Below, piece after piece: positions 6,054 through 49,060 of a stretch of 64,000 nucleotides of DNA. Both the position numbers and the translations under genes were made by a program. The stretch covers positions 27,528,001 through 27,592,000 of the forward strand of contig NC_090355.1 of the NCBI RefSeq assembly GCF_035084215.1. The letters are read 5' to 3'. Below the pieces are notes generated by a model. That model was not told the origin of the DNA and did no database searches. It was given only the letters and a program-made list of their open reading frames with translations. Source of the stretch: Heptranchias perlo. Its lineage: Eukaryota. How positions within the stretch are numbered: position 1 is the stretch's first letter; the number at the start of each line of letters is the position of its first letter.

Positions 6054-6798
6054 GCACAATCAGAGGGTCAGGGCTGAGTGTCAATGCTGTAATTACAGTC
6101 AGAGGACCAGGGCTGAGTCTCAGTGCTGTAAATACAGTCAGAGGACCAGGGCCGAGTCTCAGTGCTGTATTTACAGTCAGAGGACCAGGGCTGAATGTCA
6201 GTGCTGTATTTACAGTCAGAGGACCAGGGCTGAATGTCAGTGCTGTAATTACAGTCAGAGGACCAGGGCTGAGTCTCAGAGCTGTAAATACAGTCAGAGG
6301 ATCAGAGCTGAGTCTCAGAGCTGTAAATACAGTCAGAGGACCAGGGCCGAGTGTCAGTGCTGTAATTACAGTCAGAGGACCAGGGCCGAATGTCAGTGCT
6401 GTATTTACAGTCAGAGGACCAGGGCTGAATGTCAGTGCTGTAATTACAGTCAGAGGATCAGAGCTGAGTCTCAGTGCTGTAAATACAGTCAGAGGATCAG
6501 AGCTGAGTCTCAGTGCTGTAAATACAGTCAGAGGATCAGAGCTGAGTCTCAGTGCTGTAAATACAGTCAGAGGACCAGGGCTGAGTCTCAGTGCTGTAAA
6601 TACAGTCAGAGGACCAGGGCTGAGTCTCAGTGCTGTAAATACAGTCAGAGGATCAGAGCTGAGTCTCAGTGCTGTAAATACAGTCAGAGGACCAGGGCTG
6701 AGTCTCAGTGCTGTAAATACAGTCAGAGGACCAGGGCTGAGTCTCAGTGCTGTAAATACAGTCAGAGGACCAGGGCTAAGGGCCAGTGCTGCAATTAC
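6054..6798. repeat. 39-bp minisatellite, about 19 copies, in a PHYHD1 intron
   Basis: Unit TACAGTCAGAGGACCAGGGCTGAGTCTCAGTGCTGTAAA repeated head to tail with a few recurrent variants. Explains the three overlapping repetitive ORFs. Confidence 0.95.
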
Positions 6799-7599
6799 AA
6801 CAACTACCACAGATGAGTAGTTTCAGCAAGGGACTTTAATGCAGTTTGAGTGTGAAAAATGGATTTCCGACAGTGTAGTTACAGCATAGATCTGGCTCTT
6901 GCCAATTGGCAATAGAAGGCTGTTGGTGCCAGATTCAGAAAAATCCGCCGTCTATTTAGTTCAGAATCTGCCTGGAAGGGGCTGCTTTTCTTTTAAATTA
7001 TTGAGAAACCTAGTGAAGGGCCTGGGCCAATAAGGTTTTACACACACGGAAAAAAGAAACAAGCCACCAACACGTTTATGAGGTGATTCCTTTTGGGTGT
7101 TTTTTTTCCACACATTTCCTGACTCCTTGCAGTTCAACAGGTGCCCATCACCTTCTGGCATCACCAGCCGAGCCTCCATGCTGACTTCCACCTGCAGTCA
7201 CTGGACACCAGTCGCTTTTGTCCTTCCTGGAAACTGCTTGTATGTGGACATTGTGTGAGGACAGGATTAGGTTTGGTTGTGTTACAATCCATACACCCCT
7301 CCCACCCCACAGCCCCCCTTCTAACGCCACTATGTAAACTGATATTGCTTGGATGAGGTACTTGAAAGAAAACTGTTGGTGGGGGAAGAAAAAGTGTTGT
7401 TAAAACTGGATTTAACAAAATTTTTTTTTTATTTCTGTTTAGTGCTCAGCCAATATAAAATGGCAGAAACCATTTCAGTCTGATGTAGTGTGAGAACCTT
7501 TATCAGGCATCACTGCTACACCCGCTGGAATAAGTTCCTGTATTCCAGTAGTTGCAGCGACACTCAGTTACATTGATAGTAAACTTAAGAAAGACCCAC

Positions 7600-13630: not shown

Positions 13631-16099
13631 ATAGAATCATAGAAGTTTACAACATGGAAACAGGCCCTTCGGCCCAACATGTCCATGTCGCCCAGTTTAT
13701 ACCACTAAGCTAGTCCCAGTTGCCTGCACTTGGCCCATATCCCTCTATACCCATCTTACCCATGTAACTGTCCAAATGCTTTTTAAAAGACAAAATTGTA
13801 CCCGCCTCTACTACTGCCTCTGGCAGCTCGTTCCAGACACTCACCACCCTTTGAGTGAAAAAATTGCCCCTCTGGACCCTTTTGTATCTCTCCCCTCTCA
13901 CCTTAAATCTATGCCCCCTCGTTATAGACTCCCCTACCGTTGGGAAAAGATTTTGACTACCTTATCTATGCCCCTCATTATTTTATAGACTTCTAAAAGA
14001 TCACCCCTAAACCTCCTACTCTCCAGGGAAAAAAGTCTCAGTCTATCCAACCTCTCCCTAGAAGTCAAACCATCAAGTCCCGGTAGCATCCTAGTAAATC
14101 TTTTCTGCACTCTTTCTAGTTTAATAATATCCTTTCTATAATAGGGTGACCAGAACTGTACACAGTATTTCAAGTGTGGCCTAACTAATGTCTTGTACAA
14201 CTTCAACAAGACATCCCAACTCCTGTATTCAATGTTCTGACCAATGAAACCAAGCATGCTGAATGCCATCTTCACCACCCTATCCACCTGTGACTCCACT
14301 TTCAAGGAGCTATGAACCTGTACTCCTAGATCTCTTTGTTCTATAACTCTCCCCAACGCCCTACCATTAACGGAGTAGGTCCTGGCCCGATTCGATCTAC
14401 CAAAATGCATCACCTCACATTTATCTAAATTAAACTCCATCTGCCATTCATCGGCCCACTGGCCCAATTTATCAAGATCCCGTTGCAATCCTGGATAACC
14501 TTCTTCACTGTCCACAATGCCACCAATCTTGGTGTCATCTGCAAACTTACTAACCATGCCTCCTAAATTCTCATCCAAATCATTAATATAAATAACAAAT
14601 AACAGCGGACCCAGCACCGATCCCTGAGGCACACTGCTGGTCACAGGCCTCCAATTTGAAAAACAACCCTCTACAACCACCCTCTGTCTTCTGTCGTCAA
14701 TCCAATTTTGTATCCAATTGGCTACCTCACCTTGGATCCCATGAGATCTAACCTTATGTAACAACCTACCATGCGGTACCTTGTCAAAGGCTTTGCTAAA
14801 GTCCATGTAGACCACGTCTACTGCACAGCCCTCATCTATCTTCTTGGTTACCCCTTCAAAAAACTCAATCAAATTTGTGAGACATGATTTTCCTCACACA
14901 AAACCATGCTGACTGTTCCTAATCAGTCCCTGCCTCTCCAAATGCCCGTAGATCCTGTCTCTCAGAATACCCTCTAACAACTTACCCACTACAGATGTCA
15001 GGCTCACCGGTCTGTAGTTCCCAGGCTTTTCCCTGCCGCCCTTCTTAAACAAAGGCACAACATTTGCTACCCTCCAATCTTCAGGCACCTCACCTGTAGC
15101 GGTGGATGATTCAAATATCTCTGCTAGGGGACCCGCAGTTTCCTCCCTAACCTCCCATAACGTCCTGGGATACATTTCATCAGGTCCCGGAGATTTATCT
15201 ACCTTGATGTGCGTTAAGACCTCCAGCACCTCCCTCTCTGTAATATGTACACTCCTCAAGACATCACTATTTATTTCCCCAAGTTCCCTAACATCCATGC
15301 CTTTCTCAACCGTAAATACCGATGCGAAATATTCATTTAGGATCTCACCCACCTCTTGTGGTTCCGCACATAGATGACCTTGTTGATCCTTACGAGGCCC
15401 TACTCTCTCCCTAGTTACTCTTTTGCCCTTTATGTATTTGTAGAAGCTCTTTGGATTCACCTTTGCCTTATCTGCCAAAGCAATCTCATGTCCCCTTTTT
15501 GCCCTCCTGATTTCTCTCTTAACTCTACTCCGGCAATCACTATACTCTTCAAGGGATCCACTTGATCCCAGCTGCCTATGCATGTCATATGCCTCCTTCT
15601 TCTTTCTGACTAGGGCCTCAATCTCCCGAGTCATCCAAGGTTCCCTACTTCTACCAGCCTTGCCCTTCACTTTATAAGGAATGTGCTTACCCTGAACCCT
15701 GGTTAACACACTTTTGAAAGCCTCCCACTTACCAGACGTCCCTTTGCCTGCCAACAGACTCTCCCAATCAACTTCTGAAAGTTCCTGTCTAATACCATCA
15801 AAATTGGCCTTTCCCCAATTTAGAATTTTAACTTTTGGGCCAGACCTATCATTCTCCATAGCTATCTTAAAACTAATGGAATTATGATCACTGGTCCCAA
15901 AGTGATCCCTCACTAACACTTCTGTCACCTGCCCTTCCTTATTTCCCAAGAGGAGGTCAAGTTTTGCCCCCTCTCTAGTCGGGCCATCCACATACTGAAT
16001 GAGAAATTCCTCCTGAATACACTCAACAAATTTCTCTCCATCCAAGCCCCTAATGCTATGGCTGTCCCAGTCAATGTTGGGAAAGTTAAAGTCCCCTAC
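13631..16099 (-). mobile_element. 5'-truncated young CR1 LINE (end of endonuclease, RT domain, 3' UTR)
   Basis: ORFs 14894-16045 and 13934-14872 are in frame and separated by a single TGA (QHGFV*GKSCLTNL). RT motifs DFSKAFDKV, PQGSVLGP, FADD and the endonuclease motif SDH are present. Small frameshift near 13955. CTATGATTCTATG tail. Confidence 0.95.
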
Positions 16100-16359
16100 A
16101 ATTAATCTGTCTGTGGATCAGTGAAACCTGAAAACGTAAACACTTGCAACATTTTCTCCCCTTGTTTAAATATTCATTTAGGGCCAGATCTTAAACTAGT
16201 GTTTGATGTCAGACTATCAGTAGGAAATTAGAGCAGATCAGCAATGTGTGAGACTTGATTGTTGATTTACACTGATGTCAGGGTGGCAGTAAATTGTACA
16301 ATTGACCAATTGGAAAGTGCATACATGAAGACAAAGGGCGAGAACAGAATAGGGGCTGG

Positions 16360-24887: not shown

Positions 24888-25212
24888 GCCACATTTTGCA
24901 AAGCGGATTCTCACTTCCAATATGGACTGCAAGACTCCTGAGTTGGAAGAAAACAGGTAGTCAGCGTATTTAAATTTAAAAATATTTTGGGGAAAAACAT
25001 AACATAAAAATTAGAGTAGGGCTTGTTAGAAATAGAATAAAGTAAAATTGAGCCCATAGGAGTAAAGAGAAGACAGTAAACTGAAATAAAGTGTTTAATT
25101 TTTATAAAAAATTACTCAATATTTTTATTCTACTCCTGACATCTGGTTAGCGTTTGTTCCAACGTTACAGTGCTTGAGTTGAATTTTTTTTGAAGCCAAC
25201 CAACGAGCTGCA

Positions 25213-25928
25213 TCACCATATCTGCTCCATCATCAAGTCTGCCTATTTCCACCTCCGTAGCATCACCTGTCTCTGCCCCTGCCTCAGCTCATCCGCTGCT
25301 GAAACCTGCATCCATGCCTTTGTTACCCACAGACTTGACTATTCCAATGCTCTCCTGGCCGGCCTCCTACCTTCCACCCTCCATAAACTTGAGCTGATCC
25401 AAAACTCTGCCGCCCGTATCCTGACTTCCACCAAGTCCTGTTCACCCATTACCTCTGTGCTCACTGACCTACATTGGCTCCCAGTCCGGCAATGCCTCGA
25501 TTTTAAAATTCTCATCCTTGTTTTTAAATTCCTCCATGGCTTCGCCCCTCCCTATCTCTGTAACCTCCTCCAGCCCTACAATCCTCCAAGATCTCTGCGC
25601 TCCTCCAATTCTCGCCTCTTGTGCATCCCCGATTTTAATTGCCTCACCATTGGCGGCCATGCCTTCAGCTGCCGAGGTCCTAAGCTCTGGAATTCCCTCC
25701 CTAAACCTCTCTGACTCTCTACCTCTCTCTCCTCCTATAAGATGCTCCTTGGCCAAGTTTTTGGTCACTTGTCCTAATAGTTCCTTATGTGGCTCGGTGT
25801 CAAATTTTGTTTGATAATGCTCCTGTGCAGCACCTTTGGATGTTTTACTATGTTAAAGGCACTTAAACAAATACAATAACCCTAATAAAATAAGAAAAGA
25901 CTAAATATATATGCAAGTTGTTGTTGTT
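25213..25928 (+). mobile_element. L2-clade LINE 3' fragment
   Basis: IHAFVTHRLDYSNALLAGL...LHWLPVRQ...FK...LWNSLP is the L2 ORF2 C-terminus. Ends ATGCAAGTTGTTGTTGTT. Confidence 0.88.
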
Positions 25929-26620: not shown

Positions 26621-29131
26621 TTATACAAGGTGGTCCAGTTCAGGAAGTGACATCTTGTTGGGAATTATTAGTCTGATCTCTGGAGGAGCCTCAAGGTTAG
26701 CAGTCATATTAATTCTGATTTCTAAAGGAAGTGTCTCAAACAAATATTCATCCAATACCAGACCACTTTGTTTCAGTTTGCTACATTGTGCTACCTCTAT
26801 TGGAAGTTCTTCCAACTTATTTCCTTTGAGTTCTAGTTTTGAAAGTAGGCTACACTGCTGGATCTTCCCACTAAGGGATGAGATTAAGTTATTGTTTAGC
26901 TTCAGAGTCTTGAGCTTCTTACAGAGGAACAGCTCATCTGGTAGAGTTTCCAATTTATTGGAACTCAAATCTAGGAACTTCAGGTTTTTGAGGAATCTAA
27001 TGGCTGGAGGAATCTCAGTTAGACGATTATTGCTTATGTCTAAATGATGCAGCTTCTGAATAGTAAACAAAGTATTTGGCAATGTTTCAATCTGATTGTT
27101 TGATGCATTAAAACGTTCAAGGTTGCCGATGAAATTAATGGTATCTGGAATGGATTGGATTCTGTTAAAACTGAGATTGAAGGAGGATAGTCGGCGCAGA
27201 CGTAGCAAGCCTTCAATTTCGTCAATCGTGGTAAGCTCGTTGCCCTGGAGGTTCAACTCTTGCAGATTGGAGAGGCTAAAAATGCCCTGTGGAATCTTCT
27301 CCAGATCACAGCTTTGTAAATCAAGACGGGCCAAATTGACCATACTTCCCAAATTGTGGAGCATAGCGAGCTTGTTTTTATTATTGAGAATAGACAGCTC
27401 AACCAAATGGGGTGCAACGTACAGCACATTGAAAGGGATTTTCGAGAGGTTACTGTTGATATGAAGGACTTTCAAATAACGAAGTTCTTTTAAGAATTCC
27501 AGTTCCAACACTGATTTTTCACCATTGATGTTCCCAATCAGGTAGAGCTCTCTCAACCTGGTCAGTTTACTGATCCATTCGGGCACTTCATCGTGATTTG
27601 AAAATGTGACCGTCAGTGAGTTCAACTGGCTGCCTAAGAAGAATAAAGCGGCTGGTTTAATGGTGACCATACAGTTTACGATCGAGAGTTCTAGCAGATG
27701 GACAAGTTGGGTTACCTTGGTGTTTATGTTAATATCACTGCAAAGTTCCATCTTTAAGACCTGTATCTCAGTAACATCGTAGACCGCTTCAGGAATTCCT
27801 GATAATAGCAAAAGGTGCAGTTCTAACTGGTCCTTCTGATTTCTGATCAACTGTTGCCTCACCTTATCCGCAGTCCAGTCGCTATTCAAACTTAACATCT
27901 TCAACTTTTTCTCACTTGCCTCGGACAGGAAGATACAAAAACGTTTGCAGTACAAGGGGTCGTACTGATCGATCAGATGTAACAAGAAAGCAAAATCATT
28001 CTTTACGTTGGGAATGTCGCTGAACAGGCTTTCTCGTTTTTCGAAAGAGTATTGCTTCAGTGGTTTGCGGAAGACCCATATGATGGTGTGGAAGCAAAGC
28101 AATACATAGATAGCCACTAAAGCCAGGTAGAGCAGAAGCAGCCTCCTGAGCAAAAAGGCAACACTGAAAGTGCAAATAAAAACCCCATAACCAATCACCG
28201 ACTCTGTGCCGGGTCGACATATAATGTCAAATGCGACCGCTTCAACGTATAACGCAAAATAACTTAAAATCGTTATACACTGCAGGGTTTTTAAAATGAG
28301 TTGCCCAACGTAGAGTTTATATATCGTGTCCTCTTTCTCCACATGGACCCTGAATTTCCTTACTTTCTCAAACAAAGCTTTGGCTCGCTCTCCATCCTTC
28401 TTGTCCAGTAGCTGGTAATGTCTTTGTATAACTGGATTATTCCGTGTGATGGGTTTAGTCAATGTATCGCTGATACCGGCGACAATCGGCTTAAGTGTGG
28501 CGGCTATGCTTTTGTGCCTTTCTGGTATTTTGACGTTCATTTTACTGCTGTTCTCAGTGACTGCCAGAGAGAGGACATCGGTTGTCCAAGGTGACTCGAA
28601 ACACTTCTCTAAGATGAAGATCAAATGTTCTATTTTTGAGCTTGTTTTGGGATACTTGAACCAGAAGTTGCTACAAATCATTAACGCGACTGTATGGAGT
28701 AAAATAAAATAGCAGAAATATTTTGGAAACCAAGGTACTGCATAGAAGTAGCATGCCTGGTTGACATAGCGGTACTGCTGATGGTCCAAGTTTGCCCTCC
28801 CGTCACCTACTGCATATACAGCATCGAGGTGTGAGAATCTAATGAAGTCTGGATGAATTAATCTACCACGAATGTCAGTTACATTAGGATCCGCAATGGC
28901 GTGTCTCATGGTATAGTTGGCTTTAGTATGTATCCGGCTGTTATCAACAAATTCATCCAGAATTGGTAAACAAACAGTCTTATCCTTGTATATCTGTATG
29001 GTGCCTCCAAACACAGCGATCATCAACATGGTTATAGCCAAATAATCCATGAAAGCGTCCCACCAGGGTTTGAAGATCCGGAAGGATGGCGGGGCTTTGC
29101 TCATTGACGAAATATCTTCGAAGGACAACAT
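26621..29131 (-). CDS. LRRC8 family VRAC subunit, divergent LRRC8D-like paralogue 1 (836 aa, single coding exon)
   Basis: Intact ORF: MLSFEDISSMSKAPPSFRIFKPWWDAFMDYL, CSNFWFKYPKTSSK, LDKKDGERAKALFEKVRKFR, DQYDPLY and an LRR array. A splice acceptor (tcttctgtatttag) lies 2 nt before this ATG. Confidence 0.93.
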   Translation of the reverse strand: MLSFEDISSMSKAPPSFRIFKPWWDAFMDYLAITMLMIAVFGGTIQIYKDKTVCLPILDEFVDNSRIHTKANYTMRHAIADPNVTDIRGRLIHPDFIRFSHLDAVYAVGDGRANLDHQQYRYVNQACYFYAVPWFPKYFCYFILLHTVALMICSNFWFKYPKTSSKIEHLIFILEKCFESPWTTDVLSLAVTENSSKMNVKIPERHKSIAATLKPIVAGISDTLTKPITRNNPVIQRHYQLLDKKDGERAKALFEKVRKFRVHVEKEDTIYKLYVGQLILKTLQCITILSYFALYVEAVAFDIICRPGTESVIGYGVFICTFSVAFLLRRLLLLYLALVAIYVLLCFHTIIWVFRKPLKQYSFEKRESLFSDIPNVKNDFAFLLHLIDQYDPLYCKRFCIFLSEASEKKLKMLSLNSDWTADKVRQQLIRNQKDQLELHLLLLSGIPEAVYDVTEIQVLKMELCSDININTKVTQLVHLLELSIVNCMVTIKPAALFFLGSQLNSLTVTFSNHDEVPEWISKLTRLRELYLIGNINGEKSVLELEFLKELRYLKVLHINSNLSKIPFNVLYVAPHLVELSILNNKNKLAMLHNLGSMVNLARLDLQSCDLEKIPQGIFSLSNLQELNLQGNELTTIDEIEGLLRLRRLSSFNLSFNRIQSIPDTINFIGNLERFNASNNQIETLPNTLFTIQKLHHLDISNNRLTEIPPAIRFLKNLKFLDLSSNKLETLPDELFLCKKLKTLKLNNNLISSLSGKIQQCSLLSKLELKGNKLEELPIEVAQCSKLKQSGLVLDEYLFETLPLEIRINMTANLEAPPEIRLIIPNKMSLPELDHLV

Positions 29132-34237: not shown

Positions 34238-35685
34238 TAATAGGTACGGCACAGGAGGAGGCCATTCAGCCCATCATGCCTGTGCTGGCTCTTTGAAAGA
34301 GCTATCCTATTAGTCCCATTCCCCTGCTTTTTCCCCATAGCCCTGTAAATCTTTCCCCATAGCCCTGTAAATCTTTCCCCCACAAATATTTATCTAATTT
34401 CCTTTTGAAAGTTACTGTTGAATCTGCTTCCACCACCCCTTCAGGCAGTGCATTCCAGATCATTACAACTTGCTGTGTAAAAAAATGTTTCCTCATGTCA
34501 CCCCTGGCTCTTCTGCTGATCATCTTAAATCTGTGTCCTCTGGTTATCGATCCTTCTGCCACTGGAAACAGTTTCTCCTTACTCACTCTTTCAAAACCGT
34601 TTATGATCTTGAACACTTCTATCAAATCTCTCCTTAACCTTCTCTGTTCTAAGGCAAACAACCCCAGCTTCTCCAGTCTCTCCACATAACTGAAATTCCT
34701 CATCCCTGGTACAATTCTAGTAAATCTCTTCTGCATCCTCTCTAGGGCCTTGACATCCTTCCTAAAGTGTGGAGTCCAGAATTGAACACAATACTCCAGC
34801 TGAAGCCTAACCAGTGTTTTATAAAGGTTTAGCATAACTTCCTTGCTTCTGTACTCTATGCCTGCCTCTATTAATAAAGCCAAGGATCCCATATGGTTAT
34901 CCAACAGCCTTCTCAACTGCCACCTTCAAAGATTTGTGTATATGCACCCCCCAGGTCTCTTATTCCTACGCCCCCATTAAAATTGTACCATTTAGTTTAT
35001 ATTGCCTCTCCTCGTTCTTCCTACCAAAATGCATCACTTCACACTTCTCTGTGTTAAATTTCATCTGCCATGTGTCTGCCTATTTCACCAGTCTGTTTAC
35101 ATCCGCCTGAAGTCCGTTGCTATCCTCCACATTGTTTACTACATTTACAAGTTTCATGTCATCTGCAAACTTTGAAATTATACTGTCTATACCCAAGTCC
35201 AGGTCATTAATATATATTAAGAAGAGCAGTGGTCCTAATACTAACTCATGGGGAACACCACTGTAAACTTCCCTCCAGTCTAAAAAACAACCGTTCACCA
35301 CTACTCTCTGCTTTCTGTCCCCTAGCCAATTTTGTATCCACACAACCATTGTCCCTTAAATCCAATGGGCTTTAATTTTGCAAACAAGTTTATTATGTGA
35401 TTCTTTATCAAATGTCTTTTGAAACTCCATATACACATCAACTGCACTACTCATATCAACCCTCTCTGTTACTTCATCAAAGAACTCAATCAGGTTAGTC
35501 AAACACGATTTTTCTTTAACAAATCCATGCTGACTTTCATTTATTAGCCCATACCTTTCCAAGTGCCAATTAATTTTGTCCCAGATTATTGTCTCTAAAA
35601 GTTTCCCCACCACCAATGTTAGGCTGACTGGCCTGTAATTGCCGGGTTTACCCCTCTCCCCTTTTTTGCAATCCTCCAGTCCTCC
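34238..35685 (-). mobile_element. Older CR1 LINE fragment (RT and 3' UTR), frameshifted
   Basis: ORF pieces QHGFVKEKSCLTNLIEFF, LVLGPLLFLIYINDL..KFADD, YKTLVRLQLEYCVQFW, TRGH. A 22-nt tandem duplication sits near 34333-34376. Confidence 0.92.
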
Positions 35686-45162: not shown

Positions 45163-45438
45163 TCAGGCTTGTTCCTTGTCTGCTCGCCACAGTTGCTCCT
45201 TGACCTCAGATGGGAGTGTATTGAAGAGATCATCCTCTACTACGAGACCACTTCGCTTGAGTAGCCGGCATTCTCCGAGCTCCACAGGGAGGCACTCTAG
45301 TCTGTTTCCACGAAGCTCCAGCTGTGTCAAGCTCGTCAGCTCGCCGACTCGTGACGGCAGTGATAGCAGGCAGTTATTCCCTAGGTTTAGGGTCCGGAGC
45401 TTACGACATTGGAAGAGTTCAGGTGGCAGGGTTTCAAT
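45163..45438 (-). CDS. LRRC8A: LRRC8A (SWELL1) last coding exon (IETLPPELFQCRKL...LWRADKEQA)
   Basis: ttgcag acceptor at 45439, 91 codons plus stop. The C-terminus LWRADKEQA is diagnostic of LRRC8A. Confidence 0.97.
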   Translation of the reverse strand: METLPPELFQCRKLRTLNLGNNCLLSLPSRVGELTSLTQLELRGNRLECLPVELGECRLLKRSGLVVEDDLFNTLPSEVKEQLWRADKEQA

Positions 45439-46888: not shown

Positions 46889-49060
46889 CCTGTTTGCAGT
46901 AACAGCGAAATACTGCAAATTCTGAAGGAATCCAATGTCTTGTGGTATGGAGGTTAGGTTATTGTGACTCAAATCTAAGTACCGCAACTTGCGGCAATAG
47001 AAGAGCTGAGCGGGAATCTTTTCAATTTTGTTCCGGTTCAGGTAGAGCCTTTCCAAGTTGGTCAAAGTGCCAATCTGAATGGGGATATAGGCAATGTGGT
47101 TATACCACAGCTTAAGGCAGACTAGGCGCCGTAGGTGCTGGAAGCTGATGATTTCCTCGATTGTCTTCAAGTTGTTGTCCTTGAGATCGATCTCCTGCAA
47201 ATTATGGAGACTAAAGATTGAGTGTGGGATTCGTTCCAAGTCACAACGAATCAACTCCAATTCTGTCAGATTAACCATCTTCTTTAGACTATTGAGGACC
47301 ATAAGCTTGGTGCCCTCATTGTTGATAGACAATTTCTGCAGATGGACTCCAACATCCGTGACTACCTGTGGCAACTTAGTTAGGTTGCTCTTCAACCTTA
47401 AAACTTTGAGGCATTTGAGTTCCCGCAAGCCATCAATCACAATGTAGCGATTGTTCTCTGCACTCAGATTCCCAGTTAGGTGAAGCTCTTCAAGGTTCTT
47501 CAAGCTGTAGATCCACAGAGGAATCTCTTTGATGTCTGTAAACTTAATATGTAGTGACTTCAGGTGTTCTCGTAAGAAGGCAAGAGCTGGTGCCTCAATC
47601 TTTGCTGGTGTGTGATACAACCAGAGTTCTTTGAGGTTGGTAAGTTGGGCAATGATCGGAGGAATGGTGACATCCAGGATCATCTCCAGTTTGAGCACTT
47701 CTAGCTCAGTCAGGTCAAAGATGGTGTCTGGGATTCCACTCAGCATGAAAAGGTGGAGTTCCAGTTTGTCCTGAGAGTTTTTCATGATCCTCTGCCGGAG
47801 TTTCTCCAGGGTCCATTCATTATTCAGATTGAGCTGGCGTAATTTGTTCTCACTGACCTCAGATAGAAAGACAGCAAAACGCTTAGAGTACAACGGATCG
47901 TACTGATCAATCAGGTGCAACATGAAAGCAAAATCATTCTTGACATCGGGAATGTCACTGTAGCTGCTCTCTTCCCGAATGGACTCGAATGAATACTTTT
48001 TCAGAGAACGCCGTAGCATCCACCAGAGTGTGTACATGCAGATGAGTCCATAGACAATCACTAAACTAATGTAAAAGGATGCAAGGATCTTGAACAGTGT
48101 AGCTAATGGATGAGCGCACTGATACACACGGTATCCTGTGAGGTTCTGAATGTCCACTATACAGGACACATCAAATTTTATATCGTCAACATAATAAAGT
48201 GAATAACTAATAATAAGAGCAAATTTGATTACTTTGATAATAGTCTGTCTCATGTAGAGTTGGTAAACTATATCCCCTTCTTCTACATGGGTGCGGAATT
48301 TCTTTACTTTTTCAAACAGGGCTTTAGCTTGCTCTCCCTCCTTCTTATCCAGTACACCTGTTTCCGAGCGATCAACTATTCCCTGTTCGATGCGAGATTT
48401 TGTTCTTTGCAGCATAGGTACGCTGGCCTCCACGTCCTCACTCACTGAGGAGGATTTCTTCACCATTGAGCCATTCATTTTAACAAATGACTGTTTTGGG
48501 TCGCTCTCCTCCACCACAGTTTCAGATAGCGCCCGTGTTGTCCATGGTGAGTCAAAACATTTCAGAAGGATGGATACAAAGTGTTCCAGCTTTGAGCTGG
48601 TCCGAGGATATTTGAACCAGAAATTGCTACACACTAAGAACACCAGTGTGTGCAGAAGTACAAGGTATGGGAAGTATTTTGCAAACCAGTGAAGTTTATT
48701 CTCATAGCATACTGCATCCACATAGTTGTACTGGTGCCGGTCCAAGTCATACTGGATACCCGTGGGTTCACTGGAAAATGGGGGAAGGACTGAAGATGGT
48801 GGGAGGGATGTATTTGGGTATGCAGTGGTTGGGGGCTCTGTGGGTTGTGGCTGTACAGGTTCAACACACGTATTGTTGATAACCCACTTGCAGGGTAAAC
48901 AAATCATTTTGTCCTGTGTGACTTGCAATGTGCCACCAAACACTGCTATCATAAGCATTACGATGGAGATGTAGTCCGTAAACACGTCCCACCATGGCTT
49001 CAAGATGCGGTAAGCAGGCTGGGTGTCAGCAAAATATCGTAGTTCTGTTACCGGAATCAT
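46889..49060 (-). CDS. LRRC8A: LRRC8A (SWELL1) main coding exon, obligatory VRAC subunit
   Basis: MIPVTELRYFADTQPAYRILKPWWDVFTDYIS...YDLDRHQYNYVDAVCYE...VTANR then gtgagt. 724 codons, acceptor 7 nt before the ATG, 815 aa in total with the last exon. Confidence 0.98.

Follow-up and report, generated by a model that had tools for sequence, protein, structure and literature searches.

A histidine at the filter position of an LRRC8D-type paralogue beside LRRC8A in the shark Heptranchias perlo is a lineage-restricted substitution with a probably small effect

The shark Heptranchias perlo carries, beside LRRC8A, two unnamed LRRC8 paralogues, here called P1 and P2, and P1 has a histidine, His117, at the position of LRRC8A Arg103. 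Comparison with homologous sequences and solved structures confirms that this His is real and correctly placed at the single pore-facing residue of the VRAC filter. It is rare and lineage-restricted; it is not noise, but it does not characterize the paralogue either, and its predicted effect is probably small. We lean towards a reading in which His117 is a mostly neutral, Phe/Tyr-like filter residue that would tune the pore slightly, and not a pH or metal switch that the animal uses. The P1/P2 pair itself is the larger result and is worth more follow-up than the single His.

The three LRRC8 genes in the window, the 64-kb stretch of DNA that was analysed, are all encoded on the minus strand, LRRC8A being followed by P1 and then by P2 (Table 1); it is from this window that the adjacency of the pair to LRRC8A is known. 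P1 and P2 are 52% identical. The ATG of P1 is preceded, at a distance of 2 bases, by an AG with a pyrimidine tract. The same-strand cluster (17463-49060) mirrors LRRC8B-C-D, which stand in tandem in mammals (PMC12182595), and is a candidate relic of whole-genome duplication. The LRRC8A of this shark has Gln at the K98 position, which shapes inactivation of human LRRC8A, and the LRRC8A protein P0142 has Gln there too. Outside the three genes the window contains three long open frames, which from their motifs we take to resemble LINE reverse-transcriptase fragments, and a minisatellite.

Table 1 Features of the 64-kb window.
Feature	Position	Strand	Description
LRRC8A main coding exon	46889..49060	minus	724 codons; filter Arg codon CGG 48737-48739
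LRRC8A last coding exon	45163..45438	minus	91 codons + stop; predicted from GT donor and AG acceptor
LRRC8A filter segment	48728..48748	minus	DLDRHQY
LRRC8A K98 position	48752..48754	minus	Gln
P1 (paralogue 1)	26621..29131	minus	LRRC8D-type gene in a single frame, 836 aa; four-helix, pannexin-like pore domain, then leucine-rich repeats
P1 filter segment	28772..28795	minus	ANLDHQQY
P1 helix EL1H, residues 114-131	28739..28792	minus	model secondary structure; His117 in first turn
P1 Asp116	28784..28786	minus	D102 'lid' position
P1 His117 codon CAT	28781..28783	minus	filter position, = LRRC8A R103, LRRC8C L105, LRRC8D F143
P1 Arg121	28769..28771	minus	four residues past filter
P1 Cys127	28751..28753	minus	
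P2	17463..19877	minus	tandem sister of P1, 804 aa; filter-site Asn codon 19548-19550
P2 lid position and following residues	19545..19553	minus	lid Asp replaced, Tyr in window; Trp directly after the filter-site Asn
Long open frame	13934..16117	minus	
Long open frame	34302..34925	minus	
Long open frame	25178..25714	plus	
Minisatellite	6056..6799		39-base unit, 19 copies, 93% matches, several frames open

P1 has LRRC8 family architecture, as PF12534 matches its residues 1-350 (E 2.4e-110) and leucine-rich repeat families match besides. Among the extracellular cysteines, C54 and C127 are invariant across the 121 rows of our alignment and C305 and C320 are present in at least 90% of them; P1 has both the cysteines and the EL1H helix (residues 114-131) by which the family is recognized. 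The pore domain was modelled as a monomer from the 121-row alignment (mean pLDDT 74), replacing an earlier model from 14 rows in which the pore-domain pLDDT was under 50. In the model used here pLDDT is 72 for residues 111-120 and 90 for residues 121-130. The best fold match is the LRRC8A:D chain 9dx7_E (TM 0.90 by target), and TM scores to LRRC8 chains are 0.85-0.90 by pore-domain targets. The model being monomeric, the placement of His117 on the pore axis is predicted from homology to solved structures.

The relationships of the pair were analysed in a careful tree of 25 rows, calculated under the simpler LG+G4 model, and in a quick tree of 50 rows with long branches. The 25-row tree gives ((LRRC8D, X),(P1, P2)), with support of 100/97 and 100/100 and apart from A/B and C/E, where X is a further unnamed paralogue described below; the quick tree agrees. 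The stem branch of P1/P2 in the 25-row tree is long. Derivation of the pair from LRRC8A as a local duplicate (p-AU 1e-31) and from the LRRC8D of cartilaginous fishes (p-AU 0.00145) were both rejected under LG+G4, values that long branches could bias. P1 lies outside the LRRC8D clade and has His in place of the LRRC8D Phe/Tyr; it differs likewise from LRRC8A/B, with His and not Arg at the filter and with a clade joining it to LRRC8A rejected.

Orthologues of P1 and of P2 each range from chimaera to rays, and databases already annotate them as LRRC8D-like. The two genes share a contig in several species, have consecutive accessions in two and are fused in one ray gene model. When proteins were ranked with a P1+P2 profile (best 120 of 887), those above the drop to ordinary LRRC8D were all from cartilaginous fishes apart from one Logan row, the exception to this ranking being two fused gene models. 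A search of 50% clusters returned no further P1-like representative among the 150 matches listed, and of the 39 matches in a search for shorter proteins none was closest to P1. These comparisons place P1/P2 in a D-type lineage of LRRC8 genes whose sister group is LRRC8D plus X and which, among the matches listed, occurs in cartilaginous fishes only. P1 is 60% identical to its chimaera orthologue, as against 86% between shark and chimaera LRRC8D, and by this measure P1 is fast-evolving. The clusters B-C-D, E-X and A-P1-P2, whose chromosomes are paralogous, may all descend from a single ancestral cluster that was multiplied in the genome duplications of vertebrates. Our literature search, covering main texts and for the most part open-access papers, found no description of the P1/P2 shark paralogues or of a His filter, and the retrieved portions of PMC6028502, PMC6994961 and PMC6363415 contain no mention of either.

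The preliminary description of this DNA had set the His codon of P1 against the Arg codon of LRRC8A, and both rereading and a gap-free alignment bear this out. His117 aligns with Arg103 of the LRRC8A in the window and with Phe143 of LRRC8D in PDB entries 9t5m, 6m04 and 9dx7; the alignment to these structures has no gaps between residue 112 and about residue 195. The register at the filter is fixed, because the flanking residues L115, D116, Q118, Q119, N124 and C127 are invariant in 18/18 P1 rows; the same invariant flanks rule out a register shift. The reference residues of the preliminary description for this position (Arg103, Leu105 and Phe143) match Table 1 of PMC12182595, and its placing of the His at the pore is upheld by alignment to solved structures, by the helix of the model and by PMC12795811.

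Contigs from 4 of 11 sequencing runs were compared with the window at the His codon. Those of runs X1 and X5 span the codon and show 0 other letters there, but the two runs come from a single sample, possibly the source itself. In run X6, from a second organism (organism B), contig 18 covers 28645-28964 with 16 other letters, 12 of them listed; it differs from the window at 28751 and at 28829 and, among the listed rows (40 of 62), at no base of the His codon (28781-28783). Runs X5 and X6 may be RNA. Organism B appears to carry the His too, since rows of this contig that have equal depth and lie nearer to the contig ends are among those listed. An assembly error at the codon was rejected on these contigs, with X1 and X5 counting as one sample, the His of organism B as deduced and run X7 as giving no coverage.

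We surveyed the filter site with a homologue search using P1 residues 1-420 (best 120 of 974 matches), with species added by cluster look-ups and one P1 row counted per species. This count leaves out duplicate models per species, unnamed Logan rows, P0004, which is the window gene, and P0015 from Heterodontus, whose model begins past the site. Across the resulting 18 rows the filter residue is Phe in two (chimaera and sawshark), Ile in seven, Tyr in eight and His only in the window, such that it is uncharged (Phe, Ile or Tyr) in 17. On a 16-row tree three clade-level changes suffice: Tyr in 7/7 batoids, Ile in 6/6 galeomorph sharks and His in the window. The ancestral P1 state would most simply be Phe. 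A change from Phe to His takes two base changes.

The wider family tells of the same rarity. We read 234 filter sites from fetched proteins, classed by best BLAST match and partly redundant, and found Arg in 11/11 A/B sites, Phe or Tyr in 148/148 LRRC8D sites and Leu in 6/6 LRRC8C sites. His occurs at 2 of the 223 non-A/B sites, namely window P1 and the lizard protein P0319 of paralogue X. His117 is one of 6 private residues of window P1 in 307 core columns (162 of which are invariant across the 18 P1 rows), a number within the 3 to 11 seen in other isolated P1 rows; the chimaera has 49. The preliminary description had proposed a survey of other sharks, and this survey weakens the His as a feature of the paralogue: 17/18 species rows have Phe, Ile or Tyr.

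Neighbouring residues also vary in P1 and P2. Arg121 of P1 is Arg in 17/18 rows, and seven galeomorph P1 rows add an Arg at residue 125, giving extra positive charge on the filter helix. In P2 the lid Asp is missing from 16/16 rows, its place being taken by Tyr, His or Phe; the next-but-one residue after the lid position is Trp in 16/16 rows, and at the filter site P2 rows have Asn, Ile, Val, Tyr or Thr. The family filter is altered more in P2 than in P1.

The structural literature describes a filter to which each subunit contributes one residue, carried by a scaffold that hardly varies (PMC12795811), the residues of LRRC8A to E being R103, R99, L105, F143 and L96 (PMC12182595). This residue sits at the N-terminal tip of helix EL1H (PMC7229184), and Asp D102 forms a 'lid' over the filter (10.1101/331207). 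A/D channels have a 4:2 composition in which the D subunits are direct neighbours (PMC12795811, PMC13586245), and in the LRRC8D homomer the Phe143 rings lie edge to edge (PMC13586245).

By analogy with LRRC8D, P1 is a candidate accessory VRAC subunit of this D-type lineage, encoded beside LRRC8A and most likely LRRC8D-like in role. It would co-assemble with LRRC8A as two adjacent copies in a 4:2 hexamer, each copy giving one side chain to the outer constriction. Adjacent D-type subunits would set two imidazoles side by side, next to four arginines and under the Asp lid. In the lineage of this shark the ancestral Phe would have been replaced by His, whose imidazole at blood pH would be mostly neutral, a flat ring shorter than Arg and slightly more polar than Phe. 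Such a residue would dilute the arginine ring and favour osmolyte passage, like the Phe/Tyr of LRRC8D. Cartilaginous-fish cells depend on organic osmolytes, and shark blood pH is near 7.8. With this general value for blood and an assumed pKa of 6.0-6.5, the computed charged fraction of the His is 2-5% at pH 7.8 and 9-24% at pH 7.0. Protonation at pH 6.5 or below would be measurable in vitro as a modest shift towards an all-Arg filter, with no regulatory switch in use.

Published mutants show how much a full charge at this position does. A/C(L105R) channels have currents near wild type and high anion selectivity (PMC12182595), their dependence on voltage is stereotypical and their block by DCPIB is altered 1.6-fold (PMC13596092), and A/D(F143R) lowers glutamate and gluconate permeability, an effect ascribed to size more than charge (PMC7229184). 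Arg mutants at the partner site alter currents modestly and set a ceiling for a charged His. Human VRAC, which has no such His, shows far stronger inactivation at pH 6.0 than at pH 7.4 (PMC12501385), so that acid sensitivity alone would prove nothing. It is the low charged fraction, the modest effects of the Arg mutants and the acid sensitivity of human VRAC that lead us to favour a mostly neutral role. The other D-type paralogue, with His in 1/16 rows where the rest have Tyr, also speaks for it, as do the uncharged residues of 17/18 P1 rows and 148/148 LRRC8D sites, the three changes that explain the P1 pattern and the fast evolution of P1. Against it, the residue is constant inside each clade and its neighbours are invariant, so it does not drift freely; the His, among so few private residues, is apparently common to organism B, and it lies two base changes away from Phe. 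Asp116 could raise the pKa of His117, and the arginines and the helix dipole could lower it. VRAC is also lysosomal, and in acidic organelles the His would be charged. The proposal in the preliminary description, that a titratable His could make filter charge and permeability depend on extracellular pH or metal ions, thus survives in part: the site faces the pore and the chemistry is possible, but this is no feature of the paralogue, 17/18 rows being different, and little charge is expected at pH 7.8.

We think it unlikely, if still worth weighing, that His117 is a working pH sensor, either with its pKa raised by Asp116 or in a channel exposed to acidic spaces such as acidotic blood or endolysosomes, the filter toggling between a D-like, osmolyte-permeable and an A-like, cationic and chloride-preferring state. 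A titratable residue does face the pore, a position we regard as certain from its homology placement, and charge and size at this site alter selectivity (PMC12182595, PMC7229184). Asp116 is invariant in 18/18 rows, the His is apparently kept in organism B even though its contig differs at 16/320 bases, and 24% of it would be charged at pH 7.0 if the pKa were 6.5. Such a sensor should be kept across orthologues, however, and the His is found in 1/18 species rows plus organism B, where its presence is deduced; it is absent from the other 17 even though capture acidosis is described across sharks (PMC7816797). Only about two of the six filter residues would titrate, and acid already enhances the inactivation of His-free human VRAC (PMC12501385).

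A broader version of this idea is that in one shark lineage pH or metal came to switch the VRAC filter, which would be cationic and chloride-preferring in acid but uncharged and open to osmolytes at the pH of blood. The filter would belong to an undescribed P1/P2 pair whose filters differ by clade, and these subunits would explain why skate hepatocyte VRAC passes cations; we consider this version unlikely.

Two further explanations seem to us quite improbable. In a channel with neighbouring P1 subunits, their two His117 residues might bind Zn2+, Cu2+ or Ni2+, perhaps with the help of Asp116, and the metal would block the filter or make it cationic. The imidazoles are possibly close, given the adjacent D subunits of A/D channels and the edge-to-edge Phe143 rings of the D homomer, but four neighbouring Arg would repel cations, a site with just two ligands is weak, plasma contains little free Zn2+, and residues 112-140 of window P1 contain no other new metal ligand. 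Free bath Zn2+ did not activate human VRAC (PMC8820792), a result that says nothing on block. Alternatively, P1 may be under relaxed constraint or be a non-conducting or inhibitory subunit, in which case the filter residue would hardly matter and the His would be drift. Differences from organism B (32/44 listed) comprise 21 non-synonymous and 8 synonymous codons, mostly in disordered loops, the stem branch is long, and the other His-bearing protein comes from a paralogue truncated ahead of its repeats. This is hard to reconcile with full-length P1 proteins in chimaera, sharks and rays, with the 162/307 invariant core columns and four retained extracellular cysteines, and with a filter residue that is constant within batoids and within galeomorphs.

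The interest of His117 lies in what it adds to the family. The five mammalian LRRC8 subunits offer just Arg, Leu or Phe at the filter, and a natural His would let one channel titrate between an A-like and a D-like filter, parting charge from size. That cartilaginous fishes have two extra D-type subunits (beside LRRC8A in this window) shows that jawed vertebrates ancestrally had more than five LRRC8 genes. P1 and P2 might also account for the unusual permeability of skate VRAC to cations: skate hepatocyte VRAC has PNa/PCl and PCs/PCl of about 0.2 and Pcholine/PCl of 0.55, as against 0.02-0.04 elsewhere (PMC6363415). Skates carry P1 with Tyr at the filter, plus P2, and this lead does not involve the His.

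Among known subunits, P1 is most like LRRC8D (6m04, 9dx7, 9t5m), its best sequence match among solved structures (E 3e-245), with which it shares the NLD-x-QQY filter motif and a D-type clade supported at 100/100. It differs in being only 45% identical to a mammalian LRRC8D and in having His where LRRC8D has Phe/Tyr, and cartilaginous fishes own a separate LRRC8D on other contigs. LRRC8A (SWELL1), with Arg103 at the filter, is the same-strand neighbour of P1 and has the same fold, but the two are 45% identical, and LRRC8A has a separate last coding exon whereas P1 is one frame.

Paralogue X, like P1, is D-type and has a different LRRC8 gene next to it, which is LRRC8E both in the gene model of a rattlesnake and on a frog contig. 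Its lizard member P0319 also has His at the filter. X differs from P1 in being sister to LRRC8D and not to P1/P2 (100/97), and in having Tyr at the filter in 15/16 rows. X is an unnamed sixth LRRC8 paralogue, annotated LRRC8D-like, in lungfish, gar, bowfin, perch, frogs and squamates (P0012, P0144, P0281, P0125, P0153, P0135, P0130). Lungfish and frog X retain the leucine-rich repeats. In lizards and snakes, 11/12 proteins examined end just past the pore domain, at LRRC8D residue ~449-481 (P0180, P0313, P0314, P0317-P0319, P0321-P0324 and the second half of P0012, three being Logan rows), and P0316 stops earlier; squamate X resembles a conserved LRRC8 subunit that lacks the leucine-rich repeats, truncation of gene models being an alternative explanation. 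The literature search found, among the matches listed, no engineered His at the filter (R103H, L105H or F143H). The closest engineered counterparts are LRRC8D F143R, LRRC8C L105R and L105F, and LRRC8A R103F and R103A, which alter the very position of His117 and bound the effect that a charged His could have.
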